A stretch of 64,000 nt of DNA from Phoronis australis (Eukaryota > Animalia > Phoronida), in contig NMRA01000163.1 in the NCBI GenBank assembly GCA_002633005.1, forward strand, positions 342,071-406,070. Reading direction: 5' to 3'. The stretch's first letter is position 1. Each line of letters opens with the position of its first letter. The position numbers and the translations under genes were made by a program. Below the pieces are notes generated by a model, which did not search any database, was not told where the DNA came from, and was given only the letters and a program-made list of their open reading frames with translations. Below, piece by piece: positions 8,501 to 63,056 of the stretch.

Positions 8501-11500
8501 CATCGGAGACACAACTTTAACATCCTTCACTGCAGAGATAATAACTCTTCGGCTGTCTCCGGTGAGTCTATTCATTCTTGAATGATGTTTAGGTAAATTA
8601 AATTTTTTAAATGATCTGGAGATCAATGCCATCTAGTATGATACAAGCAAAATAAAAGCACCAGGTGAAAATTAAATTTGTGCGATTCATCATTAGACAT
8701 TTGTCAAGATCAGAACTGAATTGTATAACGGGCAGAGTGATAGTAAACGACAAAAGAGCATCAAGCAGGTGCACATCCATAGGTCACAGTAAACCTAGTG
8801 GAGAGAAACGGAAAGAGCAGGAATAATGAAATGATCTTGAACATACTACCAAGCATTAACAATTAAGTGTATTCTAAACAAAATAATGAAGATAAGGATA
8901 TCAATATTCTGTGCAGTTCGCCAATCCTTTGTCCAATGTATGACGGCTGGGGACTGCTCTGTGTGATCCTCTTCCCAGAGAGGCGGAAGCATTTTTGCCA
9001 GCCAATTGCCACCCATTCCAGAACCTATTCCCGAGCTAATCCACTCATTAACTAAGTTATGCTAACTTTATTGAACATGTATTCGAACAGAGAAAAAGCA
9101 TGTTAGACACAGTGCTTTTTAAAACAAATCTGATAATGGTGTATGAGTACAAGACGAAAGTATTCACTCCAGGTCAATTTGTCTGAACACTTTTGACTTG
9201 TACTTTAGATGATTGACATTTAACATGCGATTAGAAAACTGTGAGTTATATGAAAAATAAAATATTAGGCATGCAACATACAGGCTTTCTATTATGAGCA
9301 TTGCCTAGCTGAAAAGAGGACTGAATAACACGTTTCAGCATATTAATTATGAATTTTGAAAGTATAAAGGTTGCTTACTGGCATTCACATCTTCTTAAAT
9401 AGTGCACAGTATCTTAATTTTTTTACTTCGAAAAATAAAAATTTATTACTTCCGTAAAGCCCCACTGTTAGCGTTGCTTTTCATGACGTCACTGAGGCTG
9501 TACAGCACAAAGAGATATAGGTCATTGGCCGTGTGAGTACATATTCCAGTCGACAAACCACCTGGTGCATACTCACAACCTTTTTTGTTTTCCTTCTCTG
9601 TGACAGTGATTCGTCCCAGGGCCTAGCCAGCCAGCTAGCTGTATGAAGACTATCGTCAAAATACAGCTGGGTATCAGTAGCACTGTATGTTGAGCTCTGT
9701 TAGACTCCAAAATTTCACATAGCCCGGGTAATTCTGCTTGTCACCTTGTCGTGAAACTTATATCAACATGTACACTGTAGAGCAATAAACTGACAAAGGT
9801 GCATGCAAATATCTGGGTGTCAACCAACACTCATCTTGTCCGCTGGAGCTTTTTAAGTAAAAAACAATCTAATAAAGGTCACATTCTCTCATAATTCTCA
9901 GCCTTTTGTAACAAAGAAGTCAGTCGTAGTTTTGAAAACAGTACACTCAACACCCAACATTTCCTAAAATTTTGCATCATCTCTCAGAGATGGTGACAGC
10001 TTTGCAGGAGCAAATTTTGTTCTGAAATTCGGTTTGCTGGTATTAAAATACAAAAAACTTGAAGCAATCGAAACCAGCTCCAATAATTTGCTGTGACATG
10101 TACGCAACTTCGAAGAACAGTTCGATCACTTGTTGTACTTGGAAGACGAAAGTCTCGAGTAAGAAAACTGGCCAATAAGGCAACAGGTGGTAATTCTGTG
10201 TCAGATTTTACTCGATCAGTTTTTACCCAGGTTGGCACAAGGGCTGTATATTTAGTATACAGCTTTGCACCAAGGCAAGGCTACGCAGTCAGGGCCCCTG
10301 CCTGGCCTGATGCAGAATGCCATCGTTCGATCCATTAATAGTCAACACTACATGACAGTAAACTTGTATTATGAACTTTTGAGAGCTGAGATCGCAGACG
10401 AGTTATACACATTAAGCACAGTTCTGTAGCCAAGAGGCATTCACCCAATGAGCTATATACATAATAAGCTTAATTTATCTCATTGCCTTCAGCCACGGTA
10501 AAGCCTCAGTGTCGTCAGACGCACGTTAGACAATAGGAACTAACATTGGAAAAACTTTTTTTACAAAAATGTGGAAGAATAATAAACATGAGATTTCAAA
10601 CTAAATTACATGAAAAATGTATGTTTTTGTACTTCATGAACCTTTTATGAACCTTCATTAAAAAACAAAATAACAGAAAAAAATCTAACATCGTGTATTC
10701 CAACGTAAACCAATTTCATTTTACTGACATTTTCTCTGACTTGACAATGATTAGCTTTTAAAACATTACTATGGGTATTCATTGATTCAGTTACTCTAGC
10801 CTAGACTGTCTGAAAAATGCATAGTTACAAACCAGGTTTGGAAGGCGTGTCATAGATATTGGCTCCCAGAAGCTTTGGCCAGGCTTCTCTCCTGAGTTCA
10901 TTATTCACTAGTCCATGAGTACTGATAGCTAACTGCTTCAGCGTTGTAACATCAACTGGGTCTTCAGATAACGCCTTCCTTATCACAACTACCTTCTGCC
11001 TACGTGACAGGCTTCCTTCATCTGCATAAAAATTAGCATGATTACAGTAACAATTACAAAATAGCACAGACTGAAGTTCTCAAAATTTTACATACGGATT
11101 CCACATAAATTGGTTGAAAACAAAATCTCGTCATATCAAAAATCAGAAATTAATCACAACACTCCTCACTTTGAAAGTATTTTATTGACGATGAATTTTG
11201 CCTCGACTTTCTAAGGGCTGTTCCAGCAAAAAACGTATGAGAGGGGGAAAGGCACTTTCATTTTTTACCCAACGCCCATATTTTTCTTTTATTTCTCCAA
11301 CCCATGACCCATAATTTTAATTAGGTTGAAATATAAAATGCATCACTTGTAAACAAATTGCCACTAGGATGACAGGCTGTTAAGTGCTTAGATGATCAAT
11401 GGACAAGAACTAGTCGAATCTTGTCAAAAACTAAAGCAGCCAAGAGGGTGGTCGAATCAGAACAAGAATCGACTTTTGTCAGTGCATCCATTCCTGCCAT

Positions 11501-17940: not shown

Positions 17941-20900
17941 GTAAGGCTCCAGGCAGGTGCAGCACACGATATATGCCTTCCACTGATCGCTGGTCTCTCA
18001 GTATACAGAAATTGGTTTTCCTGTCTTATTTTAGTGAGCTACTGTTATGTTGAATTTAGTAGTTTAATGCTTTGAAAGTACAAATAGTATATAAGTTTCA
18101 GCATTTTGCAGACAATTTGACTTTGAAATCCATTCAGGGATGACTGTTCAAAACCCAAAGGGGGTAATAAAACAATAATCTTCTCAGCCAGGACCATGAG
18201 CCCTTTTTATGCTGTGTTTACTTACACAGACCAAGTGTTACAGTGAATAAGAGCAGGGTACACAAAGAATTACATTCGCTGTCCTTGCATGACCATTTGT
18301 AAAGGCCTTGAAATGACGCAGATGATTTACAAATGTTTACAAAATTCTAATCCACTATCTACACTAGTAAGCCCCTCCAGCCCAAAATGCTAAATTTATT
18401 AATTTATTCAAATCACATTGGTATGGTGTTTACCTGAAATGCAGTGTGCCTTGAAATCATTCTTATTTCCCATTATTATTGTGTCTGAGATATGTAGCTC
18501 ACATACTAACCTGGTAACATATTGTACAGGTCTGATGATAAGAGATAACCATGATTGAAGTCGTATTTACAGTGAACGGTTATTTTGGATTAGACTTTGT
18601 TTTGTCTTGTGTTCTTTTTTCAGAAAAAATATTAAAGTTTTGTAGTGATGTGGGTTGCTTGGTTTCGTTTTGAGTCTTTCGTATATCTGTTATCTGATCT
18701 CATAGCGTTGATCTTGATGACACCTGTTGCCAGTTGTCAGTACTTCTGCATGCTTCAAGGTGGATGGTAAAAAGTCCATTGACTGTATGAAAAAATAAAT
18801 AATAAACATTTAATCTGAGTACAGTAACACAAATATGGCGTTTTTCATGAAAGTATTATTTAGTAGTCTTACAAGTTAAGAGAAAAGTCATCGATCCCAT
18901 GTGCTCAGTCCTCTCCACTGTTTTGTGACAGTTTCCAACAGCAAAAGGACCTAACAACTTGACTTTTGTTATTTTGTCTAGCGTTCATCACCAGACAGAT
19001 TCGCTGTTCAGCTCTTCTAGTGGTTTCAACAACTACCGCGGCCTCCTCAACCTATGTATCATTCTTTTGGTATGTATTTCCTGATTGTCTGTATCTTGTG
19101 AGCTGCATGAAAAAGTACAATTTCTTACCACAATTACTCCTATTTGCAAAATAATTTCACTGTGAACCACATTTAAAAGACAGCTATCACTGGTACTAGT
19201 AAGCACATTTCAGTGACTAATGGTTCTGGTGAAATGACAGTCATTGCAGGATTGAATACATCCAAGCGAACTCTTATCTGATCCCATGAACGCCTTTTCC
19301 ATGGTGATGAAGTTTTTCTCTTTTTATTGACATTTAAAAAGCCAGTTTTCCTCATCAGCACCTCCTGGTGAATAAGTAGTCGGCCAATGTAAAGCAAATT
19401 ATCTCAAAATTGAAGTTATCAAATATTTTGGTAAAGCTGCTCATTTCCTTCGTTTCTTCTCAAAAACCCATGGATGGTGCCATTTTGAGATTCACAAACC
19501 AAAAATTCATGAATAATAGCAAATCTATGAGCCCGCAATCAACAAGGGAATTATAGCACTTTATTTTGTTGTTTGTACCACCAAACAAAATATCTGGATT
19601 TCTTGTCAGATCGTTTGATCTGTAATCTTACCTCTGACCCAAGCACTTGTAGTACGTCACCATGGCATTGTGGTTGGCATTACAGTTAGTCACATGATAT
19701 TTGCGAGACATTTGCATTTAAATGTGCTACCCAACAGTTCATTGTTCGTGTTTCAGTAGTTCACTGATTAACGAGTTATTGGTTTTGATAGTTGAATGTA
19801 TAGAGTTACCTTCCTTGTCTAATAAAAAATAGAAAATGGAAAAGTAGATTGAAGTCATTCCTCAAGGTCTGCTATTTGGATTTTAAAGGTTGTGTCCAAT
19901 GCGAGAGTGGCGTTAGAAAACATTATCAAGTGAGTATATTTCGTAGTTAACTTTTGGTGTGAGGATACTTAAGTATGTTTTTACAGGATAGAGGATAAGT
20001 AAGGTGTCACCAAATTAGGACGCAGTTTGGCCCCACAAATGATACTTTTAAGGATGGGGATAGTTGATTTGGTTATTATTCTGGTCCTTGTTCAGTTTCT
20101 CGCATCATGTGCTAAGCAAATGAGACACCTATTGTCCACCATGGGAAGCTAAGGTGTTACTTTTATGGTTATAATTGAAAGATCAATCTTTACCATTTTC
20201 AAGTTCTTTTCCATAGGAAACCATCTGAAAGTATTTTAAAAAGTGTGGCCGTGGACAACAATATTTACTTTTTAAAGTTTTAAAAATGTCCATTTTAGCT
20301 ATTAGTATTGTTCAAAATTTATGTAAGATTTTACCTTTAGTTACCAAATTATTAAACATCCTACTTGAAAACTAAGGAAATGGCAAAAATGATTCCTGTG
20401 CATGAGCACTAAGAAATTGCAACGATTCCTAGAAAATTTCATAAGATAATTGAGAGCATGGCTCATTTTGCAAGTTGTGTGGTGAGTTTTTGATGCACTC
20501 TAGGTCATATTTTGGACAAGTTTTGAATGGCATCATGATTTTGTAATTCCCGTCAAGTTTTATCAATTTATTTTCTTTGTGGAGAATGCTAAATAATGTC
20601 CTTTAAGAATCATGGAAATTGAACTGAATGAAAAACTTATAAGTTACCAGATGTGTTTCAAGTTTCTATCTTATCTTAGTGCAGTACTCGGCAGCTTTTC
20701 AATCTGTTCTACAATGTTTGTTTTTCAAAAATTACTGTCAGGGGTGTTTGCTTTTAAATGCATTTATCTGGGGAATTAATTTCTAGTGTAATTTTGAAAT
20801 GCATTTACTAGATAAGAAATTATCAGTCAAAAACTGTTTTTGTTTTTTGTTTTGTTTACATGCTACAGCTCGCATTTCTTATCGGCTTGACATGGAATTC

Positions 20901-23900
20901 ACACACAACGTATGTGTTGTTAATAGCTTGAGGCCTATCATGTTTGGTTGATTGGACACAAGATGGCGCTGTGGTGAAATTTAGTACTTGATCTATAGAT
21001 TTCATCCAACGCTATCTGGAGTAAGCCTTCAGTTCTTCGTTACACTTCAAAGTAACCATCCCCGTGATATTCGAGATTATACAATGACTGGTCGATAATT
21101 GAGTGATTTTTCCTGCCTGTTCTCCGGTATCCTATAAGTTGGTAGAACAATGGTATGTGGATCAATCTCATCAAGTGCTATCTCCATGATGCCATCCCGT
21201 TTCTCAGTAGCGTCTTACCATTCTCAAGATATTCAAGATTGACTGGACACTATTTCTTCGCTGCATTTTTGTTGATCTCTCATAATCGTGCTACAGGTCA
21301 CATTTTTGTTCTGATTGACACTAAATTTACTCAAATCATGCATCTTGCCTTCTTATAACAACTTCAAGGTGGTGATGTGTTTTCATCATTTCAAAAATCC
21401 ATTGGTCTGTTTACACCAACTTTTACCAGAGTCTAGCCTATTTACATTTAATTACAGGATGTTTCAGTTCATCAGCAGAGTTGAATGCTTGTAATAGGTT
21501 AGAGGAAAGCAGTCGACAGTCTGCATTAGGCCCTGCTATTTTAAGTCTGCCTTTTTCTGCTTGGAGCTTTCAATAAACACCAAATCATGAGAATCCTTTT
21601 AGATTTTTATAAGAGTCTTTAACTGTGTTTAATGAGGCTGATGACTAGCCAGACTGATTTTACCAGGTAGTAAATGTGAAATGGCCTCTGTGTTTAGATT
21701 GCAGTTCATATGAATTATTAGCCATAATATGTTGATTTATCAGATTGTAAATATCATCAGGAACTTGCTGAATTGGAAACTGCTTTAATGTATGCACACT
21801 TTTACCTTTTTATGCGCCCACATATTTATATGTGGACGCATTATGCCGTCATCTCCGTCCGTCCGTCCGGGCGGCGTCCGGCGTCCGCTGCTCTATCTCC
21901 AAAACCCTTTGACATACGTTCATGAAATTTGGCACATATGTTCCATTCATGAATGGGACGGCATGTGCGAACTTTCGGATGGATCCGACTACCGGTGTGC
22001 CCCCTAGTGGCAATTTTAGTTTTTTACGCTTACCTTTGTATCTTCAAAAGTCCTGAACGGATTTTCATGAAATTTGGTATGTANAAATTTCATAAGATAA
22101 TTGAGAGCATGGCTCATTTTGCAAGTTGTGTGGTGAGTTTTTGATGCACTCTAGGTCATATTTTGGACAAGTTTTGAATGGCATCATGATTTTGTAATTC
22201 CCGTCAAGTTTTATCAATTTATTTTCTTTGTGGAGAATGCTAAATTATGTCCTTTAAGAATCATGGAAATTGAACTGAATGAAAACTTCTAAGTTACCAG
22301 ATGTGTTTCAAGTTTCTATCTTATCTTAGTGCAGTACTCGGCAGCTTTTCAATCTGTTCTACAATGTTTGTTTTTCAAAAATTACTGTCAGGGGTGTTTG
22401 CTTTTAAATGCATTTATCTGGGCAATTAATTTCTTGTGTAATTTTGAAATGCATTCACTAGAAATTATCAGTCAAAAACTGTTTTTGTTTTTTGTTTTGT
22501 TTACATGCTACAGCTCGCATTTCATATCGTCGTGACATGGAATTCACACACAACGTATGTGTTGTTAATAGCTTGAGGCCTATCATGTTTGGTTGATTGG
22601 ACACAAGATGGCGCTGTGGTGAAATTTAGTATTTGATCTATAGATTTCATCCAACGCTATCTGGAGTAAGCCTTCAGTTCTTCATTACACTTCACAGTAA
22701 CCATCCCCGTGATATTCGAGATTGTACAATGACTGCTCGATAATTGAGTGATTTTTCCTGCCTGTTCTCCGGTATCCTATAAGTTGGTAAAACAATGGTA
22801 TGTGGATCGATCTCGTCAAGTGCTATCTCCATGATGCCATCCCGTTTCTCAGTAGCATCTTACCATTCTCAAGATATTCAAGATTGACTGGACACTATTT
22901 CTTCGCTGCATTTTTGTTGATGTATCATAATCGTGCTACAGGTCACATTTTTGTTCTGATCGACACTAAATTTACTCACATCATGCATCTTGCCTTCTTA
23001 TAACAACTTCAAGGTGATGATGTGTTTTCATCATTTCAAAAATCCATTGGTCTATTTACACCAACTTTTACCAGAGTCTAGCCTATTTACATTTAATTAC
23101 AGGATGTTTCAGTTCATCAGCAGAGTTGAATGCTTGTAAGAGGTTAGAGGAAAGCAGTCAACAGTCTGCATTAGGGCCTGCTATTCTAAGTCTGCCTTTT
23201 TCTGCTTGGAGCTTTCAATAAACACCAAATCATGAGAATCCTTTTAGATTTTTATAAGAGTCTTTAACTGAGTGTGTTTAATGAGGCTGATGACTGTAGC
23301 CAGTTTGATTTTACCAGGTAGTAAATGTGAAATGGCCTCTGTGTTTAGATTGCAGTTCATATGAATTATTAGCGGTAATATGTTGATTTATCAGATTGTG
23401 AATATCATCAGGAACTTGCCGAATTGGAAACTGCTTTAATATATGCACACATTTACCTTTTTGTTTTTGTTTTTATTTCTATTATTTATTGTTTTTTTCA
23501 ACTGATTGTTGTGCTGCAGGTACTGTTCTTGCTTTCAGATATGGCATTCTAGTGAATCCTCTACAGTGGATATCAGTGCTTCTTCACAAACCAGACAGTT
23601 GGCCTACCTTAAGTCTATCTGTCTGTGAGTGTCTGTACTTTAGATAAAACATGTGACAAGAGCATTCTCTTCAGTTTGGAGTTGTTATTATATTCAATTT
23701 GGTTTTACATCAGATTATTGTTGGTTCATTGGTGTAAATTTTTTGAAGTTATTTAGCTTTGACCAGAGCTATAAAACAACAGAATTCTTTGTGTTTATGT
23801 GATTTTTTTACAAATTGCCAACTTTCATGATTTGCCAAACGCTCACAGAAATCAAGGCCGATGTCTTTACCATATGGTTGAAATACTCTCACACATGGAA

Positions 23901-45000: not shown

Positions 45001-48000
45001 CCTATCACATGGTTTACTGAGGATTTCACAGTTAAATGGTGGGAGTTACACAAGACTGAGATTATGGAATGAAAATGATCTGAATTATTATGACACAGAA
45101 ATAAACTACAGGATCTAAAATGTACGGTTTGTGGCAAGACCGGCTCGTCCAAATGTCGGTTCAACAAGAGCTGCAAAACAACATGTTGTGGAAATCGAAG
45201 ACATTCCATGAGTCCACTAAAAACAGCTCACCAAAGAGACAATTTATGAGCTAAAGAAGCAGAGAAAATGAACTTCCATTTATTATAAAATGAACCTCCA
45301 TTATAAAATGAACCTCCATTATAACAAGAGCAACGCGGAGCGTTGAAATGCGCCCACGAATGCATTGCAAATGGTGTGCTTTTAGGGTTATTTAGTATTT
45401 GTATCATAAAAATGGCCACTGGATGGGGCAAAAACATACAATCCATTCAAAAACAGGAACATGCCATATTTCATAAAAATCTGTCAAGGAACTTCAGAGA
45501 AACAAAAGAAAACAGAATAAAGTGAAATTGCCACTAGTGGGCACAGTGTCCGTTGGATCCGCCTGAAAGACGCCGTCGTCTGTTGTTATCTCCATTATAA
45601 ACACACAACTTACTAAATTTAGTAAAGATCCTGCAGTGGGTTTAAGAGATACAACTATGGGCGCGAAACAAAACTGCCACAAGCAGGCACCACAGTAGTC
45701 AGTCACCATCATCAAACGTCATCTTCACACTAAGAACATATATGCCAATTGTCAAATGATTTGGTTGAAAATCATCATCAACCATCCACTTTACAGTAAG
45801 CACATACATGCCAATTTTCACAATCATCCTTTGAGCGGTTTGTTTGATAGAGGGGTGGACGCAAAAAACACTCGAAAACAGTAAAAATGGCCACTAGGTG
45901 GTGCAAACTATGTCGAATCCATCCATAAACGGAAGGATAGCGTCATCTCACCAATAGGTGCCTACATACCGAATTTCATGAAAATCCGTTCAGGACTTTT
46001 GAAGATAGAAAGGTAAGCGTAAAAAAATTAAAATTGCCACTAGGGGGCACACCGGTAATCGTATCCGTCCGAAAGTTCGCTCATGCCATCCCATTCATGA
46101 ATGGAACATATGTGCCGAATTTCATGAACGTATGTCAAAGGGTTTTGGAGATAGAGGAGCGGACGCCGGATGGACGCCGCCCGGACGGACCGACGGACGG
46201 AGATGATGGCATAATGCGTCCACATATAAATGTGTGGGCGCATAAAAAGCAGAAATGATCACGTGGCATTGCTTTTAATGCCCAATATTACAAGATTTCA
46301 TGTTTTTTCGTCTGAAAGTAGCACACATGGTTACATGTGAATACAACAGCACTGTGACCACATATCACATGCTACTGTAGTCTTACAAACGCACACTTGT
46401 GAAGTCATTTGAATTGAGTATGGTTTCTACACGACGCATTGTTGGAAACTAGACTTTAACCAAGAGACTTTTAATTAGCTGAAAGTCCGCCCAGATGATT
46501 GGCAATTCTTTGTGTCACAGAGAGGTGTTCAATACAAAGACTATCTGAATGGAGACTTTTGCAATAATTAGGAAACCATTTTTCTATTCAGGGTTCAAAA
46601 TCATAAAGTTCCCATCAGATAACATTAGGGAAAAGTCATACAACAACAATGTAACTATCCACATTCCAGTTTTTAAGTTAAAATAACATAGGTCTAACAA
46701 TAGCAAAGCTTGAAACATGCTGCTCGTTACATAAAGATGTTGATGAATTAAACTATTTAATATGTATTACCAGAGAAAAGGCAGTCTCACCTTTGCTCTT
46801 GACTTGGTCATCTGGTGGCCGTGGATGTGGCGTAAATGTGCCATGGGACTTATAGCTTGTGTACGCCTCTATCTCATCCTGGTACTTCAGGTTGGAGTCC
46901 TTTCTAGGTGTACCCACCACAGAACTTGCCCTTTGGGTTAAAAGAAAACAATTGCCGTATTTTCTCAAACAATACTATATACAAATTGAATATGCAGATG
47001 GCGCGTTCATTGACGATAGTCTATCGTGAGATAGTCGCTGTGTGAAATGTCAATAGACAATGAGAACGGTAAGTATTATGGTGACAAAGATATTATCTTT
47101 TAAAAGCACCATGTAATGCCACCTTTAAAAACAAGTGTTGTCAGTGGTTCATGTTATGGGGTGTAACTCCTTAACTAATTTTTAAATACAAAGTTTTAGC
47201 GTTCTTAATTATGGTAATACACCAGCCTGACTGGAGTCCACGGATTATTTTAATGGAAGACTGACCGCCAATAGGAAGATTTCTTCCAATTTGAAGTTAA
47301 TGAGAGTGACCCTACTTGGATAACACTGCATGCCTTTGGGATTTTAAGTTTCAGACATTTTGAAGGTGCATGCCAATTATGACTGCAAGATGGTTCGCGA
47401 AACAAAGTGAATCCTAGGCATGCATTCCCTGGGTCTGATCTTTCTCAGCAAAACATATCCGCTCAGATTATTTAAAAGGATTCTTATTCATTAAGTGTTA
47501 TTTTGCACTTGGTTTCCCCCAGGGTTTGTACCACAAATTTTAGAAAACTTGGACAAATTTTGACAATATTGGTGAACTTTTTGAAAACAAGTAATATACC
47601 TGCTGTGAGATTGTGATGGTGACAGCTCCTCCTGGTGTTGGCGACGAGAACTACTCACAGGAGCAGACTCTCTGGCCTCTTCAGATTCCATTTGATGAAC
47701 AGCTACAGAATAGATCAAAGCACTCGTTAGTTTAGAGTCTACAACCAATTACCAGTTAGCAACCATTTACAATTATCGCCATTTTCAGAAGTGCATGGAA
47801 CAAACTCACACTTTTACCGACCAGCCCCCAAAAGTGTAAAAAACTTTAATATTTTCGTCGATCGGGACTGACTAAATTGTAAGCTGAAGGTATACATTGG
47901 CCAACAAAAGTGCCTGGATGACAAAGAATAATAAAAATTTCAAGTTATTTGTTGTGTTATTAATACATTTTACGAAGCAATAGATAAGGCGTTGAAATTT

Positions 48001-51000: not shown

Positions 51001-53800
51001 GAAATTTGGTCTCACAATCCCTCTTCACAATCGTTGAATAAAGTTTTAGCAAAGTAACCATGGGCGCATCATAGTCTAGAAATAATTTAGAAATTGTCTC
51101 AGTAACTATCAGTTAGGTAATATATTCTCAGAGGCTATATAAGTATTATTTAGTTATTTTTCATAAATAATCTTGTGGAGTGTCGGACCAAATTTATGAC
51201 TTAAGGCTTAGAGTCACTTCAGAAGCAGACCAGTGCTTTGGCACGATTACGTGAATGAAGCTGACCTAACTTTCTCAGACTTGGCAGCAGGTGTATGAGG
51301 AACAGTCTGTAGTCTGGCTCATCTCTAGTGACAGGGTTCAGTCTGAGGTCCAGTTCCTCCAGATTAGTATTGTGTCTCAGCTTGTGTAGCTCGTCCAGGC
51401 TGGAGATGTTGTTGTAGTACAGATTCAACCTATCCAGCATCTTCAGGTGCTCCAGGCCCTGCAGGTAGGAATTACATTAAAGCCTCAAGTGTTAACAAGT
51501 AGCCCCACCTAGTGTTCAATCCCTGGACCAACTTGTCGAATCCAACTGACAGATTCTGTCAGAGTGCGATAGTTCATTAAGGCCATTAGTAGCTTCTTCA
51601 ACCTCAGTCCTCAGCTATGATAAGCATTTTTTTCAAGTCCAGAAATGAGCAAAGACAAGTTAAGGCCAATCAATTCAAGGGTTTGAAGCGTTTGAATTGC
51701 TGAAGGTGGATGCTTCCAAGCTAAAATAAAATTCTTATTCCCATTACCAAAACCATGTTTTAAGACACAAATTTTAGCCGAGTTTGATGTACAACACAAC
51801 ACAATGCATGTTGCCACTTCAACAAGAAAATCGTAAAAGTACAAGTTTGTACTTCATACATCCAATCACTTACATCAAGGGAAGTCAAAGAGTTCCTGGA
51901 CAGATCTAGATGCTTTAGTCTCAGAAAGTTCCTCAACGAATGACCCAAGTGACATATCTTGTCTTGGTAGGTACCTGGTAAGGTGAGAGATCGCACATCC
52001 TCTGAAAACAAACAGAAAATGATTGCCCAATGCACCATGGATCCAGACTGGAAACTATATAAGTACTGCAAAAGTCAACTGAGGTAATTTTTAATAGATG
52101 CAATACATATACAGCCGTAGCCAAAAAGGGAAAAAATTGATGTCATCAAATAGGAAACTTTTCACATTGGCACTCTTTGGAGTAATGAGAGCATGAAAGT
52201 GACGGACAATTGATCCGACCAGAATTGACTGACTTCAATTACTATACATAATGGTTCATTAACTCAAAAGCAAAAGAATACATTCCAGTCAGTCCCTCCC
52301 AGTGAGTTGTTAAAATTCAGGAATTTATTTAGTTTTTTGACATCGGCTGGGATTGAAATTTTGCCGCTTTGTCAGCGGCAGCCACTGCTAGCTTTGTTGC
52401 GAAAACATCTTTGCGATACTTGAATCACCTGTTTAATTGTAACTTCCGTACACAACAGTTCGATATCAAAATAAACGACTAAATTGTAGCATTGGTAAAC
52501 ATGGTAAATATGGAAAACAGTTTAACAGTAACGCCACCACTCACGAGTCACGACTCAGCAGGCCTTTCAAAAATAATAGGGTGTCCAAAATGGGGTTCCC
52601 AATATTCCAGGGTGTCCATGATTCCGACGCATAACCCNTATTTTCAAACCCGTGTTCATGTGCAAGTCAAGTGGTTGTTCGTAAACCAAGGATAGAAATA
52701 TAAATCGTAAAACCGGTGATAGGTTAAAGCACAGTCACAGTTGGTCAAAATACTTATTCAAATCCTTGTAAGTATATCAGGCGAATACTCTTGGCTTTTT
52801 AACACCACTACTTAAAAATAGTTGAGGTGTTCCCTCTCTCCAGTGCCCAGTGGCGATGTGGTGACCGCAGTGCATAATCTTAGATGTAAAAACCTTGATC
52901 TATGCATTTGTTTGTAAAAAAAAATCTGTGTGCTGGGGGTTTTGCTGGGGGTGGGGGGTTACGCGTCGGAATCATGGACGCCCTGGAATATTGGGAACCC
53001 CATTTTGGACACCCTATTTTCAAAATCCTGGATAAAGGCCTGGCTAATTTAGTGTTTGCTGGCAGAAAGTGTTGTGAAACAACTCGATTTCCATCCCATG
53101 ACCAAGTGTTAGGGGAATCTTTATTTACATTTACATTACTCAAATAATGATTGTCAATGTACAACTTCTGCCCTGACGGTGCTGTAGCCCGGCAAAGCGG
53201 AACCTGACCCAATTCGCGGCCCCCGACGAGTAAGTAGATTTACAGTTTTCGTGGCTAATTCACCAACATAATCACCGTGCTCATTACTTTGGCTCACTAC
53301 TAGAGTATTTTTTTGACTGGAAGTTTAGTTTCCACTGAACTTTAGCTGGTTTATGTTCGTGATGTCACTGGCTGGGATAACGGCAGAGTCAATCCGGCCG
53401 GCCGCTACGGGCCTGATCGGGCTTCGAGTCACTGGCCAGGATAACAAGCGTTTTGTGTTTAGAACTCAAAGATCACAAGTCTAAACAATCTATCTAGGTT
53501 CTCCTGTCTGTATCTCACGGGAAGTACTTCGAAATTATCTCAGAACAGACCCCCAAACTCCTGCTACAGACCTTGTTTGCCTGCCGAACTTTGTAGACTA
53601 CTGTGTGTCAAAATACCAATAAATCCGTAAGAGCGAAATACAACAACACGTTTTTATAAGGACTCGGTGTATTTTCAAGTGTTTTACATCGAAGTTTGAT
53701 GATTTATTGGTGTTAAACGATGACTTCACGCGATAAGCTGACACCAGTTACCCATGTTGTGAACTGCTGAACAGACTGCGTGTGAAACCGGTGACATCAT
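38840..53800 (-). CDS. CEP72: Centrosomal protein of 72 kDa / LRRC36-like (N-terminal LRR plus C-terminal coiled coil), about 560 aa
   Basis: Exons 53800-53752 (tentative), 52001-51874, 51458-51266, 50602-50444, 48911-48786, 47702-47600, 46930-46791, 44629-44568, 44193-44070, 43508-43336, 42375-42231, 40574-40460 and 39005-38840 join in frame. Motifs: SLTLPGTYQDKICHLGHSL, LNLYYNNI, RLNPVTRDEPDYRLF, LLDLVDKYWNGSKSLH and LQESHKSLVQTNEHLL...QLHWSF. Confidence 0.9.
40460..40574 (-). CDS. CEP72: CEP72-like exon
   Basis: ELMQQNSVLKQEVDMLKIRLKQFSQMQELASMLQESH. Confidence 0.9.
41134..41262. repeat. 26-bp minisatellite, about 5 copies
   Basis: Unit approximately ttagtcat(t/a)atgcaggta(a/g)atgatc. 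Confidence 0.85.
42231..42375 (-). CDS. CEP72: CEP72-like exon (alternative same-phase donor at 42207)
   Basis: VALQQRLKKAYEENTSLRQRLE; coiled coil. Confidence 0.82.
43336..43508 (-). CDS. CEP72: CEP72-like exon
   Basis: QADAIFTEFL...LQQQNQELGQENRLLQEQL; GTgagt donor. Confidence 0.85.
44070..44193 (-). CDS. CEP72: CEP72-like exon
   Basis: FLSKLLDLVDKYWNGSKSLHRNKRF. Confidence 0.88.
44568..44629 (-). CDS. CEP72: CEP72-like exon
   Basis: QSSQDLSYQPSQSNTAHKVY; supplies the phase 1-to-0 change the model needs. Confidence 0.7.
45323..46248 (-). mobile_element. Apparently full-length HINE/Helentron-like non-autonomous element
   Basis: 5' T-run and hairpin, GTCC-type microsatellite and about 150-bp internal units. 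The 3' end has a subterminal inverted copy of atgcgcccac, a CAACGC-GGA-GCGTTG hairpin and a CTTGTT terminus. Confidence 0.8.
46791..46930 (-). CDS. CEP72: CEP72-like exon
   Basis: DSNLKYQDEIEAYTSYKSHGTFTPHP; GTgag donor. Confidence 0.82.
47600..47702 (-). CDS. CEP72: CEP72-like exon
   Basis: VHQMESEEARESAPVSSSRRQHQEELSP; phases fit the neighbours. Confidence 0.75.
48786..48911 (-). CDS. CEP72: CEP72-like exon
   Basis: LDDDDVAMLDLIARSGGDLNQPR. Confidence 0.88.
50444..50602 (-). CDS. CEP72: CEP72-like exon
   Basis: DRGVRDSERRAALMHF. Confidence 0.92.
51266..51458 (-). CDS. CEP72: CEP72-like exon (LRR and LRR cap)
   Basis: GLEHLKMLDRLNLYYNNISSL...LDLRLNPVTRDEPDYRLFLIHLLPSLRKL. Confidence 0.95.
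51874..52001 (-). CDS. CEP72: CEP72-like exon (LRR)
   Basis: DVRSLTLPGTYQDKICHLGHSLRNFLRLKHLDLSRNSLTSLD. Confidence 0.95.
52559..53042. mobile_element. MITE-like element with about 80-bp inverted arms starting CAGGCCTTT (hAT-like ends); contains an N
   Basis: aatagggtgtccaaaatggggttcccaatattccaggg pairs with ccctggaatattgggaaccccattttggacaccctatt; no matching TSD. Confidence 0.65.
53752..53800 (-). CDS. CEP72: Tentative first exon of CEP72-like gene
   Basis: caacATGG|GTaac donor in phase 1, within a CpG-richer promoter-like stretch. The peptide is not recognisably conserved, and the real exon could lie in the N gap at 52639. Confidence 0.35.
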
Positions 53801-54604
53801 TGGATAATTTCAACACCTCCGTCTGCCGTCAGGTGTCAGGTAACGCAACCGTACGTGTCGATATGGAGTAGAACTACACGATCTAAATTGATATAAATTA
53901 GGTTGTTTTTTGGGTGGCATGCTCCTTTAAATCGCCCGCCACAACTCCTAAGCGGTGTCACGTGATATATTTCAACGTATATTCTCTAGAGATTCGGAGC
54001 TCTTTCGCATTGAAGATAAGTTTGACCTTTACATCCGCTGTATTTTTTATCCAGAGCATGACAGTTTTATTGTAAAATTCGCATTATTGTATTCACTTTA
54101 AGTCACATAGTTTCAATTACTGATTGACTCATGTATTCGAGAGACCAGTTTGTATCTTTGGACGATGATGATTTTGACTGGCAAAGCATACTGGAGCTCA
54201 ATGACGACGAACGGAGCTCCACTTGTCTTGTGGGTTTTCTTCTGTTTGTGTCAGTGCCAGAACTGCCACTGAAACTGCGGTAACGAGCTCAGGTGTACGT
54301 GGCCAGAAATCAGGAAAATCAAGGAAATCTGGTACGTATCAAGGCAACTGCCTATCTCATATTGAATAAATGTTGTCAACATGTCAGTAGAAATCGCCTG
54401 ATTGAGGAACCGCCGCAACTCTGACCATTTTTCGTGGCACATTTATTGTTGTTGTGATATAGCACCGATTCCCACCTTCGTTGACATTGTTACTGTGTTG
54501 GTGTTAGTATCATGGTGTGTTGCATTACTGAGAGAAAAAAGATTCTGTATTCTCTTAGAAAGGGTTTCACTCTTTATTGCACAAAAGAACCACACTGTGA
54601 AACG

Positions 54605-54722
54605 GTATTATTGTTAATTTATTGTCACTGTATTTTATTGTTACTGTATCTATTATTGTTATTATTATTACTATTATTATTATCGTTACTGCTATTACTA
54701 TTATAATTATTATTTTATAATT
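54605..54722. repeat. (TAT)n-like microsatellite
   Basis: ttattattactattattatt runs. Confidence 0.85.
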
Positions 54723-54732
54723 GTTCTTGCAG

Positions 54733-55739
54733 GTCTAAAGCTGAGCACTCGATACACCAGAGACGTCTTTGAGGCTAATTTCCATGATTAAATCACAGAG
54801 GCCAAAACAGAAATTGTAGGTGATAGTATTTTACAGCTGACCGATTCTGGAAAGAAAGCTGCACATATTATTGGTCAAATCAACTATGCAGAAAAGCCAA
54901 AGATTTTAATGAATTTTTTATATTCATCATTGACAGCAGGAGATGACCTCCATTTGCCAAGTTCAAAACGTGAAAAAATGTGGGAGGTTTTTCACCAGCA
55001 ATGCATAGACTCGAGCTTCATTGCACAGGATGTAGAATTTCTGGAAAAATACGCGTCAAAAGAAGGTAACTATGTTTTGCGTCGTGTGTTTGCCACTTTT
55101 GTACGCACACTTTTCCATCATGTTTCTGTGGCATGCGATTCAACAAACATGCCAACAGTCCAACCAAACAAAGCAAAAGAACTACCGTAACACCTACAGA
55201 AGAAAAAGCATTGCACTATCTTGGAGGAGCAATTTGTTCGCGCTTGGAAAAGAAATTAAAAACTAAAGTCGGATGTGCACGAGCTGAACAGTGCTTTAAT
55301 TTGTTAGACTTTTTCTGATGGCGACGGTGATCAACGTGACAGTATCATGAGCGAATGGACTGAAATGAAAAACTAGTCACTCCGGTGGTTTGAAATTATT
55401 AAAACAGAACTCTTCCATTTCCTAAAAGAAGTTGAAAGAATTGGTTGCTACTGCTTACAGCCTGACAAACTAGTCAATTATCATGGTGGTGACATTCGAG
55501 ACAATGTCTTTTCCATTGTAAGGGAAAGTGAAAGTGGTCTAAAATTCTGGGATGACTTGTGCCAGAATACACCAGTTGATCATGACATTAAAATGTACAT
55601 CATGTCCATGGTAGTGAAATTTTATGTAACCCTCGGGGGTTATTCATTTCAAAAAGGATTACTGGAAATTTATCAGCACTTTTCATCCCAGAATGTTGCC
55701 CGTCAAAAGGCACTACGCAAATCACTGAAGAATGACTAG
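54733..55739 (+). pseudogene. Convergent transposon-associated pseudogene resembling the P-transposase C-terminal domain
   Basis: Follows a ttgcAG acceptor: ...KREKMWEVFHQ...EEKALHYLGGAICSRL...EWTEMK..GGL...LFHFLKEVERI...KFYVTLGGYSF...QKALRKSLKND stop, broken by stops and frameshifts. A possible degraded first exon starts at ATG 54131 (MYSRDQFVSLDDDDFDW). Confidence 0.72.
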
Positions 55740-56897
55740 GATATTTGGGCTGCAGGTTTTCTTAAAAACGGTGTTGAAACAACAAATTATGTTTTTCTCG
55801 AGCTTGTGTCTTGTGAAAACTGATTAGGTGAACTTTAATACAAGTGCAATACAGTGTCAACTTGACAATATCAAGTTAATTTATCTTCATAGATATTGCC
55901 ACGCTCTTCTTTTTGATGTCTTTTGTGTGTTATGTGAACTATTTTCAAGCCCACCTGCAGTAGACAGGACTTAAATTTGTCAGTGAGAAAGAAACCAACT
56001 CAAGCTAGTGAAAACAACCCAAGTCAGTTATTCAACAATATTTGTCTACAAGAAAACCTGCAACCTACAGATAGACATTTTCAATAATATTTGTGAAAGG
56101 GTTCTAGAAATTTCTGAGATCAAATCGTAACAGCCAATGATATGATTAGATATGATCATGCAGTTGCAGAACAGTGTGTGTTAGTAGGAGGATCGACCAA
56201 CGAGTGTCAAGTCCTACAGCGTGTACAGCAGATAAGACGTTTGATTATTTATGACTAATTGATTGAAATTACCCTTACGGAGGGTGGTAGCGTACTAACT
56301 CTTCTTCATTAGTATTCTAAATTACTTAATTAACGACAGGTTTCACTTGCATTACTTAGTGTTAATTAAATAATAAACTTATTACTGAATTTAATCATTC
56401 TCTCTCCATTCATGCACAATTACACACCATAGCTACCTTTTAAACTAAACCCACAGTCAACTTCTGACACTTTGAAACATGGTATTTCCCTCTAATACTC
56501 TAATAGTTCGTACTGTAGGCGTCCTAGGGAAAAATAGTTTGTACATGTAAGTTGCTAGCTGTTTGTCACTGCATAACTTGCCTCATCAGTGAAATTCGAG
56601 CATTGGTCATTGAGTGGAGTTTGATCTCGAATGGTTCGCATGTTTACTTTTGTCTCTATTAGTTTGAACATGAAGCTGTCAAGGGTAAAGTAGTACATTA
56701 GTGTACCAACTATTAATGAAACAATAGTGCATTGCAGTATGTGCACATGTAAAATACATTTTTAACTGTTGCTTTTAAGCAAGAGGCTAACCAATTTCAA
56801 TAAATATTATTACAGGCAACCAACAAATTACACCAGTTCAAATGGCTGCAGACAAGTTTTCAGTGCAGTAGCAATCCCCGTGCATTAGAATTGCTGT

Positions 56898-59800
56898 TCA
56901 GTAACGGTATATCGTGAATTCTTTCTTTCTCTTTGGAATTGCACTGTTGTCAACTTCGAAGTTGCATGGTCCATTCTTTCGACTGCCACAGTTACCAGTA
57001 AATGATGCACATGCACTAGATTTTTGCAGCCTCAGAGAAGCAGCATTGTAGTTGAATGTTGAACTGATGTACAGTAGGGTTGTCGCTAAAACCACCAGCA
57101 CTTCTTTGGAGGGAGAAATATTGTTCAAGTAGATCCTGATTAAAGTTTTCACTTAAAGCAAATTGAACATCATTGTTCAGGAGAAATTTGCATGCTTCAA
57201 TGAATGAGTGAACAGTAATTTGTATACCCTCCAATGTTTGAAAACTCAATAACATTTTACTTTTTTCTGATCTACTGAATCCAGGCCTGTTTTGCACTTC
57301 ATTTGTCCAAGCTTTGAGGTCCTCAAGAAAGACATGTTCCAACCAATGAAACCGAACATCATCCAAAGTGACATACGGAGCAAGGAATTGCTTCGCTCTC
57401 TCATGCTCATACAGAGACTGTACATTGAGACAATCAAAGTTTCTAATAAATTTAACATTTTCTGATACTTCATTACCAAACAGCATTTCTAATGCACTTG
57501 CAACGGCTGCACTTATTACTTGAGTGGCATAAGAAACCCTCATAGTGCCAAAAGAAGTGAGGTAGATGTGAGCTCATGACAGCTTGTGAGCAAGCCATAA
57601 AAATGCACTTTGTTCGTGGTGGTAGAGTTTTATGACATGCCCCCATGAAATATATTTACCATTGCGCCACAATGCTCTACTTCAATTGTGGGCAAAACTA
57701 TTAGAAAAGCAATTTCAAGTTGTTTTGATGAAGTGTGGAGCATCTGAGAAAAAGAACAGTTCACTACCATCTTCAGCCCAGGGGTTAAAAGTTTTGTACA
57801 CTATTGAGTTGGCACCTTGTTTGTGAATTTTAAAGAACTTTCTATATGGTGTCGCCCCATCTCCTGTTATACTTAAGACTTTGAAGTCTAACCACTCCAG
57901 TCGCTCAACTGCTTCCCATAAAATGGGGAGAAGATGCTGTGACTTTGCACCCGTTATGGGAAAGTGAGCAAAAAACCATACTAGTCCTCAGGTCATAAGT
58001 ACTAGCATGTGTGTGGCAACATCAGGCATGACTGGCCCATCTGCGTTTAGAGCCCGCTCCAGATCATCCATGTGATTGGCAACATCAGGCATGATTGGCC
58101 CATCTACGTTCAGAGCCCGCTCCAGATCATCCATGTGATTGGCAACATTCCCAAGATCAACAAAACCAATTAACTCTCCCGAGTGCTTGTCAAACACAAG
58201 GTTTGACTTCAGTTTTACCTCGTCCATAAGTATACCTACAAACATGTCTGATTTTCCTTTCTTCTTCATTTCAGCTTGCATCATAGAAAAAACATGTTCT
58301 TGAAATCCTGACTCAGTTTTGAAAACAGTGTAGTCTTTTAGAGTTCGCTGAGAGGGCAACTTGATGCAACCAGAATTACGCAGTTTCATAAGCTGCACTA
58401 GATTTGAATTTCAAACTGAGAGCCCAGCGGATTACCATGGGGTGCCAATGGATACTTTTGGCATTTTTGAGACATGTGGCTTTCATTTGCTGGTCCCAAA
58501 AGAGTGCAGCAAAAGAGTTTGGAGGAAATGAATGTTCATTTTTTTTCATTTACAATCTGCTGAATGTCAGATGCTGTTTCAGAGTCAAGGTTTACACCTT
58601 CTAATTGTATATTGTCCTGCATTCGTTTTTCCAGGCGAACAATGCGTTTTTTAAGTGTTTTGTTTTGGAGAGTCCTAGACTTTAGCTGATTCATCAGCTG
58701 AGTTGAATCAAGGTGAACTAGAGGCGTGCTAGAAGAAGGACTTTCGACGTTGTCCACGTTACGTCGCTTTCGGGAAAGGATTGCCCTCGGTGTGTTCCGA
58801 AACTGTGAACAGCTGGAACACCGGCTTTCACCTTTATCTAGCATAGCACAGTTCACAGACCTTACTGTTGAAATATACGTCTCCCCATAATTAGTGTTCT
58901 CTAAGAAGCCATTTTTGCTTTTCGATATGCAACTTTGAAACTGTTCATCAGAATTACCACAGCAAACACTAAACTCAGAAATCAAACTTATCACCTTATG
59001 AACATTTTCTTGAGTTAAGAGAGGGGGATCTCTACATTTGAAGATATCGTGACTGTGAGAGATTTCCCTAGAGTGAACTTTTATAGAAATTTCTGCCCTA
59101 ATAAAATTGACAACGAATTTACACATAGATAATTTAGCCACATCTACTAATAAAACCAGCTGCAGCAGACTGTCTTCATTCTTGGTGATGACCCATCCTT
59201 TAGGAAGCTCTCCGTGTTTATCTGTAAAAACAGTTGTAAGAAATCTTTGGTGTCCAGTCCTGATACCTACATTTCTCAAATGGACATTTTGCTGATACAT
59301 AATTTATGTTTTCTACAGTCAACCACTTTCAAGTGTTTCAGTGACAATAATGATTATAGTAAACACATTGACCTACCTGAGAACACTGTACCCTTTGTAT
59401 TTTCCAAATCAGAGTTGACCACAGTGTTGTTGTCACCACCACGACTTTTCCCGCTGCAACTGGACTCAGTCAAAGGAATGTCGAGATATCCATAACCATC
59501 ACTTTCACTGGAGGCTACAAAAATATTTAAGTGAAGTCTGAATGGAAAAAGCTATTGTTACACAACACTGCTGACAATTTAACTACTGCTTTTACCGGTG
59601 TAGTACATTTTAAAAACTGGTGTCCCGTCTTATTCACTAACACTGTAAATGCATGGTAATAACTGCGCTGTCAAGGTAACAATAAAACTAAGATTCTGAA
59701 GCAGATTTCATAATAAGTGAAACCTGGCTAAGAAGTAGTTGAATCTGCCACATTTTTCTAGTGTCCTTAACCACTACAAAGAATGTACGAAAAATACTAG

Positions 59801-60712
59801 AGATATGTAGACGATTCAGCTTCAAGGTCATGATCAATAAAATGTGCATTTAACAAAGGCCTACTACCAACAGAAACCATCTACAAGATGGGTTCAACAA
59901 GTATTCCCCTTTACTTGAAAACTCTGCTTCTGTGTTGTCCAAGCCAGAGCTGACCACAGTATCATCAAGGGCAGAGTGATCTTGAGTAAAAGTGGATTCA
60001 TTCAAAAGAACACTGAGAGGTACATCATCGTCGTCATCATCACTTTCACTTGAGCCTACAAAATAGTTGACAAACACCGAAATTGATAACCACATTTTAT
60101 GTTACACAATTCATAAAACCTTGATTGTCAAAGTATACAGAGTTGAATGGGGGCAGTAATGTTATATCCATTGGGAGGTGACCTGCCTGGGGTCTCCTAA
60201 ATTGGCCCACGACTCAAAACTGGCATCCAGCATAGAGCAGGAGTGAGGCTTAATTTTACTCAAGAGCAGATCTCGAAATGCATTTTGCTTTACCTGGAAA
60301 TGCAGTGGCATCATCATTTTCAGTGCTGGAACTGCCCAGGTCATCATTCGTATTACTTGGCTGGATGTTTCTGGAAGCTACAAGGAAAGAGACACACTGC
60401 ATTGTTGCTAAAAATACTTGTTAATACTTAATAATTGTACGTCAAGAATTTTTATAGTTAGGTTCTCACTTACAGCAAACACAATGCTCATTAAAAATGT
60501 AACGAAAAAGTAAATTTATTATTTTATCCACTCTACTCTGCTTGGTCAGCCTACTTATGTGCCTGAATGGAATTCTTTTCATCACAGGTAGCTCAAAAAT
60601 TGACTTACGAAGGTCTTATTCTATGTTCAAGTAGTACCTCTAAGTTCATCTTGCTTCCTCCGGCTGTTTTTTCGACGAATACCAATCCGCTTTAAGCACG
60701 TGGAACCCTCAT
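56898..60712 (-). pseudogene. P-element/THAP9-like DDE transposase pseudogene
   Basis: Reading across frameshifts and stops gives LFWDQQ...WHPMVIRW, LPSQRTLKDY, ILMDEVK (D1), GFVDLG, ITGDGA (D2), SDAPHFIKTT*NC, MRVSYATQVIS, NQDLLEQYFSLQR (E) and DNPT. Upstream spliced segments lie at 60712-60638, 60377-60294, 60055-59915 and 59514-59377. No THAP exon found. Confidence 0.92.
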
Positions 60713-62062
60713 CTAAAACAGGAAATGAACAGTAAAATTCCAACACTGAGCAAGATGTCAGGTCAGTCATTACAAGTAACATCAAGTGAGGATTTCACCA
60801 CATACTATCACTCTCTTATTCAGCTCAGCAAACTCAAGCTGCCCCGCGTAAGATGTAAACGTTTTAGAGGAAAAATCAAGTTTTTCATCGGGACATTTTT
60901 ATCACTTTTTACACTTGAAAATCAGGAAATGTATGAATTCTAAAACTTTAAGTAGTGCACAGTCTCTTACAGGGCATTACAGTCTCTCCCAATAACCCAA
61001 ATCCAACAGAAACCAGAACATTCGTTGAGAAAATATTCATGTTCAAAATTTCTTAAATTCCCATATCGGACCAGTTTAAGGACACTAAAGTAATTTTCAA
61101 AACTTTCACACTCACAACATTCCAATTTTAATAAATATAAAAACACCAAGAACCTTATCAGTACTTAATAATACTAAATCAGTTTTTAAAAAATTAAAAC
61201 TTCTTGAAGCCGACATTCCAGATTTGAGAAATTTTGTGCAAAATATGCTGGAAATTCGTAGTTTTAGCCAAAGCTTTGAATATTGCAAAGATTTGTCAGT
61301 TTCCATATCAAAATGAAGGGGATAACCACCTTGACTAAACAATCAGTACATAGCAAGGGTAGCTATTTGTCATAATAAAAAGAATACAATGATACTGATA
61401 TCCCAGTTTGGTGAATTATTGTGCAAAAAACAGAAAATATGCCAAGTGCGAGACCTACTATGGCAAAACAAGGAAATCTGCCATTTGTAACATGTCCTTT
61501 TAAGAATTATTTGAGGAATTAATTTATAAAAATACTACAATATGAAGTACAAATATGACAAGAGCTGTAAATGAACAGAAATTTCTGTACTTGAACAGCT
61601 TTGTGCATTACAAACACCTGGAAACATGCTATGAATGGTCAGCCAGTATTGCTAAATATGATTCATGGACTAGGGGTGGTGCACCACAGGGGTCTGGGGG
61701 GCTTAAGAGACCCATCTCCACTTTTTCAGTGCGGCTGCGCTGCCCATGTAGTGTCAGTGTGCAAGACTCAAAAGTCCAGTCCAGTCTGTTGTGTGACTGG
61801 AGTGGCATGCATTGGCATTGGATTTGGAATGCAGAGCAAAACTGGTATACTCATTCATGCCTGGGTATTCTTGTATTGGAAGTACAAAGTAGCAAAATGG
61901 CGGCCCATGATTTATGTAAGCTTTTATGAAAATTGTTAGGATCTTATTGGGAGTTTAGAGCAATTATCGAACAAAAGAAAGCTGACCCCCCTATAATATA
62001 TGCCAGGAAGGAGTTAATCATTCATGTAAGATATTGGCTACATGGGTAAACTTCTCAACTCC

Positions 62063-62100
62063 TTGTTGGGCTATAGAATCGTTGTTGGGCTATAGAATCG
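62063..62100. repeat. 19-bp perfect tandem duplication
   Basis: ttgttgggctatagaatcg twice. Confidence 0.9.
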
Positions 62101-62958: not shown

Positions 62959-63056
62959 TGTACACTGCTGTTCGTATGTTCACTATGTTGTACACTGCTG
63001 TTCGTATGTTCACTATGTTGTACACTGCTGTTCGTATGTTCACTATGTTGTACACT
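62959..63056. repeat. 30-bp perfect minisatellite, just over 3 copies
   Basis: Unit tgtacactgctgttcgtatgttcactatgt. Confidence 0.95.

Follow-up and report, generated by a model that had tools for sequence, protein, structure and literature searches.

P is the textbook one-gene transposon, with the 751-aa transposase of Drosophila melanogaster (PDB 6P5A/6PE2) carrying, as does vertebrate THAP9, a DDE RNase H core with a GTP-binding insertion and an all-helical C-terminal domain (CTD) on a single polypeptide. Transposition in the P superfamily is a GTP-dependent cut-and-paste reaction with 17-nt staggered ends. Galileo and 1360/Hoppel are also single-gene elements, Galileo having long terminal inverted repeats (TIRs), and PIF/Harbinger elements encode two proteins, a transposase and a Myb/SANT-type DNA-binding protein, and have a 3-bp target site duplication (TSD). 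Passages of PMC3698922 give Galileo and 1360/Hoppel as intronless with 7-bp TSDs, and passages of PMC9587614 describe a second gene in Kolobok elements, with Kol0 comprising a transposase and KolX, a protein with a Cys/zinc cytoplasmic-ballast fold, and KolobokP carrying a His-Me nuclease. Here a 64,000-nucleotide stretch of Phoronis australis DNA (assembly GCA_002633005.1, contig NMRA01000163.1, positions 342,071 to 406,070; the window) is analysed, which holds what is probably a decayed two-gene transposon of the P superfamily, with the CTD encoded on a convergent gene (gene 2) whose product, protein 2, would join the transposase-DNA complex as a required subunit.

The transposase gene and its early end

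The DNA is of eukaryotic type, rich in repeats and with introns, and a broken P-superfamily transposase gene lies on its minus strand. The core (57058..58383) comprises the RNase H (DDE) domain and the GTP-binding insertion and matches the relative P0031 at 44%. Pieces of the gene match the Pfam families PF21787 (TNP-like RNaseH_N) at E 2e-12 and PF21789 (RNaseH_C) at E 2e-8, hence the match is beyond chance, and they match chain 6p5a_A of the Drosophila P transposase at E 9.5e-12. The GTP-binding insertion, PF21788, scores under the cut-off in these pieces (E 3e-4), with all three families exceeding it in P0031, thus the RNase H domain split by a GTP-binding insertion that marks the P superfamily is found in both.

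The three catalytic positions that an earlier note on this DNA had read are all present in the translation, with the Asp of MDEV at 58222-58224 and that of GDGA at 57859-57861 (both counted from the translation), the first Glu of QDLLE at 57124-57126 and an SDAPH motif located between the catalytic motifs. The gene is decayed, with four in-frame stops between 58410 and 57019 and frameshifts near 57057, 58382 and 58525. Beyond the 57057 frameshift the tail reads GNCGSRK...SAIPKRKK and ends with a stop at 56898-56900, about 75 codons past the catalytic Glu, where the note had estimated roughly 70. This last part (56898..57126, minus strand), made up of the catalytic Glu and a short tail of the form GN...D..IPKRKK that recurs in 29/29 relatives and 21 loci, includes no CTD, and the window transposase thus lacks the joining of core and CTD on one polypeptide that is canonical for P and THAP9.

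Upstream of the core lies the N-terminal region (58382..59226, minus strand), recognised by tblastn with residues 83-375 of P0031, which has a Cys-rich part, a coiled coil and an HWHP/helix-turn-helix segment and is broken by two frameshifts. No THAP domain, an N-terminal feature of the P superfamily, was matched by Pfam in the window pieces or in P0031; one is present in P0038 and P0043 and is listed for 11 of the 29 long relatives described below. The earlier note had carried the gene as far as 60712, however the small acidic 5' exons on the minus strand at 59380..60712 are putative, being read from the sequence only, and tblastn with the relatives found no homology support for them. A 63-bp in-frame tandem duplication (58006..58131) within the RNase H domain was found by repeat analysis of the window.

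The early end of the transposase is not peculiar to the window. A search limited to proteins of 813-2,320 residues, the size range expected for fused forms, and word-seeded so that distant fused forms may be missed, returned 29 long relatives of 815-953 aa, the named hosts being Ptychodera, Pecten, Ylistrum, Mytilus, Stylophora and Holothuria. Twenty-seven stop 53-80 residues past the QD..E motif, and the remaining two, without the exact QD..E pattern, have the same GN...D..PK-type tail. A profile of gene 2 scores on none of the 29 (best E 0.35). As 29 out of 29 end equally early, the short transposase is not the result of a local inversion or truncation, and its early end is a trait of the lineage. 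Intact relatives with a fused CTD, which the earlier note had held would speak against a split, are not among them, and one nested locus, L012, looks to have been fused secondarily.

Gene 2 and its relation to the P C-terminal domain

Facing the transposase on the plus strand is a spliced pseudogene that runs from an ATG at 54131 to a stop at 55737-55739. The motifs that the earlier note had quoted from it are all present, spread across three frames, as the gene is broken by one stop and several frameshifts. Exon 1 (54131..54331, frameshifted, bounded by the ATG and a GT donor) encodes an acidic N-terminus followed by a K-rich stretch and matches residues 1-32 of the Lingula protein XP_013410367 (56% over 32 aa, E 9e-5, tblastn in a 9.5-kb search space). 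The intron (54332..54732, plus strand) has GT...AG ends, holds a TAT microsatellite and is missing from one contig of X8, which is guessed to be an RNA run, with the joint at 54333->54737. Exon 2 (54733..55739, plus strand), delimited by homologues and family models, carries the stop and frameshifts and encodes a six-helix N-domain (~54790-55160) followed by a P-type CTD (~55190-55739) that ends in a basic helix. With stops read as X, a phmmer search against 1.84 billion representative proteins gave a best E of 1.8e-19, which among so many proteins is beyond chance.

Both genes are decayed, as the earlier note had observed, and the window copy of the element is dead. Contigs from the same species represent another version of gene 2. 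The intron-skipping X8 contig and one X1 contig are without the stop at 54789-54791, a further X8 contig lacks 5 nt across the first frameshift of exon 2, and in exon 1 the X1/X3 contigs are shorter by 32 nt. The 5-nt and 32-nt changes would fit an open frame, which makes it probable that the species also has an allele or sister copy with less damage. Raw RNA reads on the element are few, mostly match it at under 95% and are biased towards opposite strands in X5/X6 and X7, and they were not used as evidence of expression.

Gene 2 belongs to a family of stand-alone proteins of ~300-390 aa. There are 24 relatives at E<=0.001 among the 1.84 billion representatives, the longest of 493 aa, with one repetitive match (P0021) excluded from all alignments. 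The closest is a 391-aa Lingula protein (E 1.8e-19), which exon 1 matches too, with further named members in Ptychodera and Saccoglossus; in all three hosts the proteins are annotated 'uncharacterized', and the split would give this unnamed family a role. The motifs E.NALRY.AGY, W...RGGL, Y.TIRG.F and K.LRK.L are conserved in the family alignment. Word-seeded protein searches with gene 2 matched 0/67 and 0/693 candidates, and scans of viral contigs found no relatives.

The earlier note had proposed that the plus-strand product corresponds to the P CTD, and the two were matched by both profile and structure. The top PDB match of both gene-2 profiles is 6p5a_B, the Drosophila P CTD (E 0.058; E 0.0057 for the C-terminal half alone), and hhalign of the gene-2 profile to the CTDs of two fused P transposases gave E 2e-4 and 1.2e-5. 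Pfam Tnp_P_element_C is weakly matched by 6/23 members (best E 8.7e-4). In an AlphaFold2 model of a family protein (pLDDT 80.5) residues 132-297 align to all 118 resolved residues of 6p5a_B (617-734) with a Z of 10.8 and a root mean square deviation of 2.7, this being the sole chain with Z>=8 among 48,161 (runner-up 7.7), and Foldseek pairs the two with a probability of 0.89, a TM by target of 0.61 and an E of 0.72. It counts against the assignment that a Z of 10.8 is within the range flagged as cautionary for helical bundles and that the PDB sequence E-values are modest. As structure, motif order and profile matches agree, gene 2 is assigned to the CTD, and the C-terminal half of its proteins is predicted to fold like the entire Drosophila P domain. 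The last 35 residues have a net charge of +6 to +10 in 9/9 homologues checked and +4 in the window copy.

The N-terminal ~125 residues are predicted to form six helices (pLDDT 93). Searched alone, this domain reaches a best Z of 5.8, with no Foldseek or PDB sequence match. That it is an internal duplication of the CTD was considered and is unsupported, with 6p5a_B at Z 4.4 and rank 23 and a probability of 0.2% when the N- and C-domain profiles are compared. No Myb/SANT family is listed in the Pfam and fold searches of the domain, an absence from the list that does not exclude one, and an ESM Atlas search with P0003 gave sub-threshold leads only (AAR2, 0.82 on a poor model). Gene 2 is under purifying selection (nonsynonymous change, dN, 0.066 and synonymous change, dS, 0.255 in the closest pair of sequences); in the other 8/9 pairs dS is at or near saturation and dN is 0.2-0.5. 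The Ptychodera gene-2 protein P0007 has a C2H2 zinc finger in an N-terminal extension, which could add DNA binding.

Linkage of the two genes and the ends of the element

A metagenome scan with the gene-2 alignment found 32 loci, and in 26 of these a transposase of the same type adjoins gene 2, 25 times convergently (tail-to-tail) and once on the same strand. Counted from the side of the transposase, 7/9 eukaryotic-looking contigs from metagenome-assembled genomes (MAGs) have a convergent gene-2 match, one of them a fragment only, and in the remaining two the transposase match likewise ends early. A further 20 stretches, chosen by the analyst, comprise six convergent pairs, four or five fused-type or likely fused-type transposases and otherwise lone pieces of either gene. 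Transposase and gene 2 co-diverge, their identities being correlated (Spearman 0.80, 248 pairs from 23 elements, permutation p 2e-4). In 18 related loci the stop codons are 48-209 bp apart (median 110). In the window the distance is 1,158 bp, close to the 1.2 kb given in the earlier note, and this spacer (55740..56897) is partly due to inserted high-copy repeats at ~56097-56650, seen as depth peaks and loose ends.

In eight elements (L005, L006, L008, L015, L027, L034, L037 and L039) both genes lie between a pair of TIRs. These are 31-50 bp long, except for 613 bp in L039, and perfect in L034 and L037, with the seven elements measured spanning 4.8-6.8 kb. Seven were checked for TSDs, four of which (L006, L034, L037 and L039) have duplications of 7 bp; the flanks of the remaining three do not match, which could come from collapsed repeats. 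TIRs with a 7-8-bp TSD, as expected of the P superfamily, are thus found in the relatives. The earlier suggestion that the genes travel as one unit is borne out by the 26 linked loci and the shared TIRs, although the TSD is 7 bp and not the 8 bp it had named, and the window itself yields no ends. The three outcomes that the note had named as refuting its reading, no match to the P CTD, a fused CTD in intact relatives and unlinked gene-2 homologues, did not arise. The 613-bp TIRs of L039 (7145-13908 of that locus) start with TAG rather than CA.

There are a number of points that weigh against the two-gene reading. A search of the window copy that included CA(T/G)AG(A/G) starts and the subterminal motif of the relatives gave neither a TIR pair nor a TSD. 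Six of the 32 gene-2 loci are without a transposase; the contig ends within 150 bp in three of these and within 700 bp in one, but the flanks of L007 (2.6 kb) and L028 (1.5 kb) leave space for one. In L018 and L031, which are among the 25 convergent loci, only internal fragments of the transposase are found. No transposase accompanies the decayed gene-2 pieces of L089-L091 within 13-14 kb, the second gene 2 in L085 lacks a transposase to itself, and in L078 and L079 the C-terminal part of a transposase comes without a gene-2 match. Linkage was counted in metagenome and MAG contigs and in the window, not in the named mollusc, coral and echinoderm genomes, and as kinship is shared among the elements the Mantel p-value overstates their independence.

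Several of these loci are of note in themselves. In L085 (5682-9992) a single C-terminal transposase fragment is flanked by two gene-2 copies in opposite orientation. Intron-containing eukaryotic-type transposons occur on contigs of up to megabase size within prokaryotic MAG assemblies (L033-L041, G001-G005), pointing to host DNA binned there, and assembly G005 holds divergent split elements together with fused-type P transposases (L076, L077 and L072-L075).

The direction of change was considered with trees made by FastTree on 55 rows and by fast IQ-TREE on 26 of these, rows with fewer than 150 aligned core residues being dropped. All short-tailed transposases, including that of the window, form one clade against two fused outgroups (SH-aLRT 99; FastTree 0.85), and it is a further point against the reading that just these two fused transposases root the tree. 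In L012 (2979-4497) the two genes share a strand, and the splice signals between them keep the reading frame, with a GT donor directly behind the basic tail, an exon of 51 nt and phase-1 junctions. One in-frame stop interrupts the tail. The position of L012 inside the clade of convergent elements (support 98; 0.98-0.995) favours a re-fusion, or a tandem arrangement, that arose later, with the fusion itself predicted from splice signals only.

What protein 2 may do

The reading favoured here is that protein 2 supplies the CTD in trans after a fission at the linker, as a domain on such a linker could be cut loose, with the N-domain replacing the tether. Protein 2 would then dock where the CTD sits in the P complex and hold the target DNA with its basic last helix, and in place of the covalent linker its N-domain would bind the transposase or the ends, whilst a separate gene-2 promoter would give the element a second point of control. 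Set against this, the requirement for gene 2 is inferred. A complex prediction of the non-cognate pair P0031 395-860 and P0007 185-493, with alignments unused and no DNA, scored 0.00, which is evidence neither way.

It is also conceivable, if clearly less probable, that protein 2 is a non-essential regulator derived from the CTD, a repressor or targeting factor, with the short transposase working alone and protein 2 tuning its activity or target choice by binding the ends or the transposase. The own gene and extra N-domain of protein 2 would suit such a role, as would the faster evolution of gene 2, which has a mean identity of 28% compared to 45% for the core. Passages of PMC7776569 also describe P elements encoding repressors from parts of their transposase, the 66-kDa and KP proteins, yet according to the same source the CTD is structural and contacts DNA in the Drosophila complex. 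Known P repressors keep the N-terminal part and are without the C-terminal part, which is the opposite case, whereas protein 2 carries exactly the domain absent from the core, and gene 2 is retained across the clade.

It is very improbable that the split exists in the DNA only and one polypeptide is made after all, by trans-splicing or from a rearranged transcript. L012 makes a spliced fusion at least possible in sequence, but the genes face each other in 25/26 linked loci, gene 2 possesses a separate first exon whose start is conserved, as well as a cis-spliced contig, and the database proteins of both kinds are predicted separately. Least credible of all is that an internal inversion has scrambled an ordinary P element with a fused CTD, or that the two genes are unrelated and simply adjacent, since although the window copy is old, with insertions and without recognisable ends, the same layout is found in TIR/TSD-bounded elements elsewhere, the gene-2 N-domain and first exon find no alignment in the fused CTDs compared, and the short tails of 29/29 long relatives, the 26/32 linked loci and the transposase-side linkage refute it.

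Returning to protein 2 as a required subunit, the wider proposal, held with a little more belief than doubt, is of a widespread undescribed clade of invertebrate P elements with an obligate two-protein transpososome, in which the CTD that grips target DNA was set free as a subunit by an ancient fission and is docked on the enzyme by a new helical domain, with re-fusion in at least one lineage. If this were so, protein 2 would act as a licensing and targeting subunit that can detach, and many of the 'THAP9' proteins predicted in molluscs, corals and echinoderms would be only half of an enzyme.

Other features of the window

Unrelated high-copy repeats lie on both sides of the element, as judged from depth and loose ends. 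One abuts the gene-2 side (53043..53930, loose ends at 53043 and 53930) and may have disrupted or hidden the element end, the other is on the transposase 5' side (61950..62100, the right limit approximate, loose ends at 61950 and 62081). Across the element, contigs have a depth close to that of the flanks, which yields no copy number. Further repeats are a 444-bp element (52575-53018) resembling a miniature inverted-repeat transposable element, with 63-bp arms that are 97% complementary, a 1.38-kb direct repeat (20434-23462, 96.6%) whose copies flank a 278-bp repeat recurring at 45963-46249, a palindromic 430-bp element (4105-4533, 70% self-complementary) and a perfect 30-bp tandem repeat of about three copies (62959-63056). 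An open frame at 8204-8632 on the minus strand has a middle part which we take to resemble an exon of a TBC-domain Rab-GAP gene, although it has no Pfam match at E 0.01.

Comparison with known systems

No description of a split P element was found in the literature covered, with Repbase, Dfam and most subscription journals outside its scope, and Repbase entries may already list a second open reading frame. The natural split shows that core and CTD need not be encoded together, and offers a clean way to test the role of the CTD in pairing, cleavage, target capture and TSD length. Activity tests and annotations of short 'THAP9-like' transposases may miss a needed partner, and if protein 2 is required the element would be a switchable or retargetable two-part transposase.

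The split elements share with Drosophila P and THAP9 the DDE RNase H core with its GTP-binding insertion and, in protein 2, the all-helical CTD fold, the motif order and the basic last helix, and the relatives of the window element have, like P, TIRs and short TSDs. They differ in that a convergent gene of its own encodes the CTD together with an additional six-helix domain, the core stops 53-80 aa past the Glu, the TSD is 7 bp rather than the 8 bp of P, and THAP is annotated in just 11 of the 29 relatives and was not detected in the window copy. The 7-bp TSD is not a mark of the split, because Galileo and 1360/Hoppel share it, and the 613-bp TIRs of L039 also recall the long TIRs of Galileo; unlike these two the split elements have two intron-containing genes.

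Kolobok, in its Kol0 and KolobokP forms as passages of PMC9587614 describe them, is likewise a DNA transposon with a second accessory gene. Identity with Kolobok or KolX is rejected on the features given there, as the gene-2 alignment has no conserved Cys or His-Me pattern, the helical model matches the P CTD and the transposase is P-type. PIF/Harbinger elements also divide catalysis and accessory function between two genes, whereas here the transposase is P-type, the TSD is 7 bp and not 3 bp, and protein 2 is a piece of a P transposase with no Myb match listed. Thus the element belongs in the P superfamily by its core and TSD, stands outside the single-polypeptide architecture of P and THAP9, and works in the manner of Harbinger without belonging to it.

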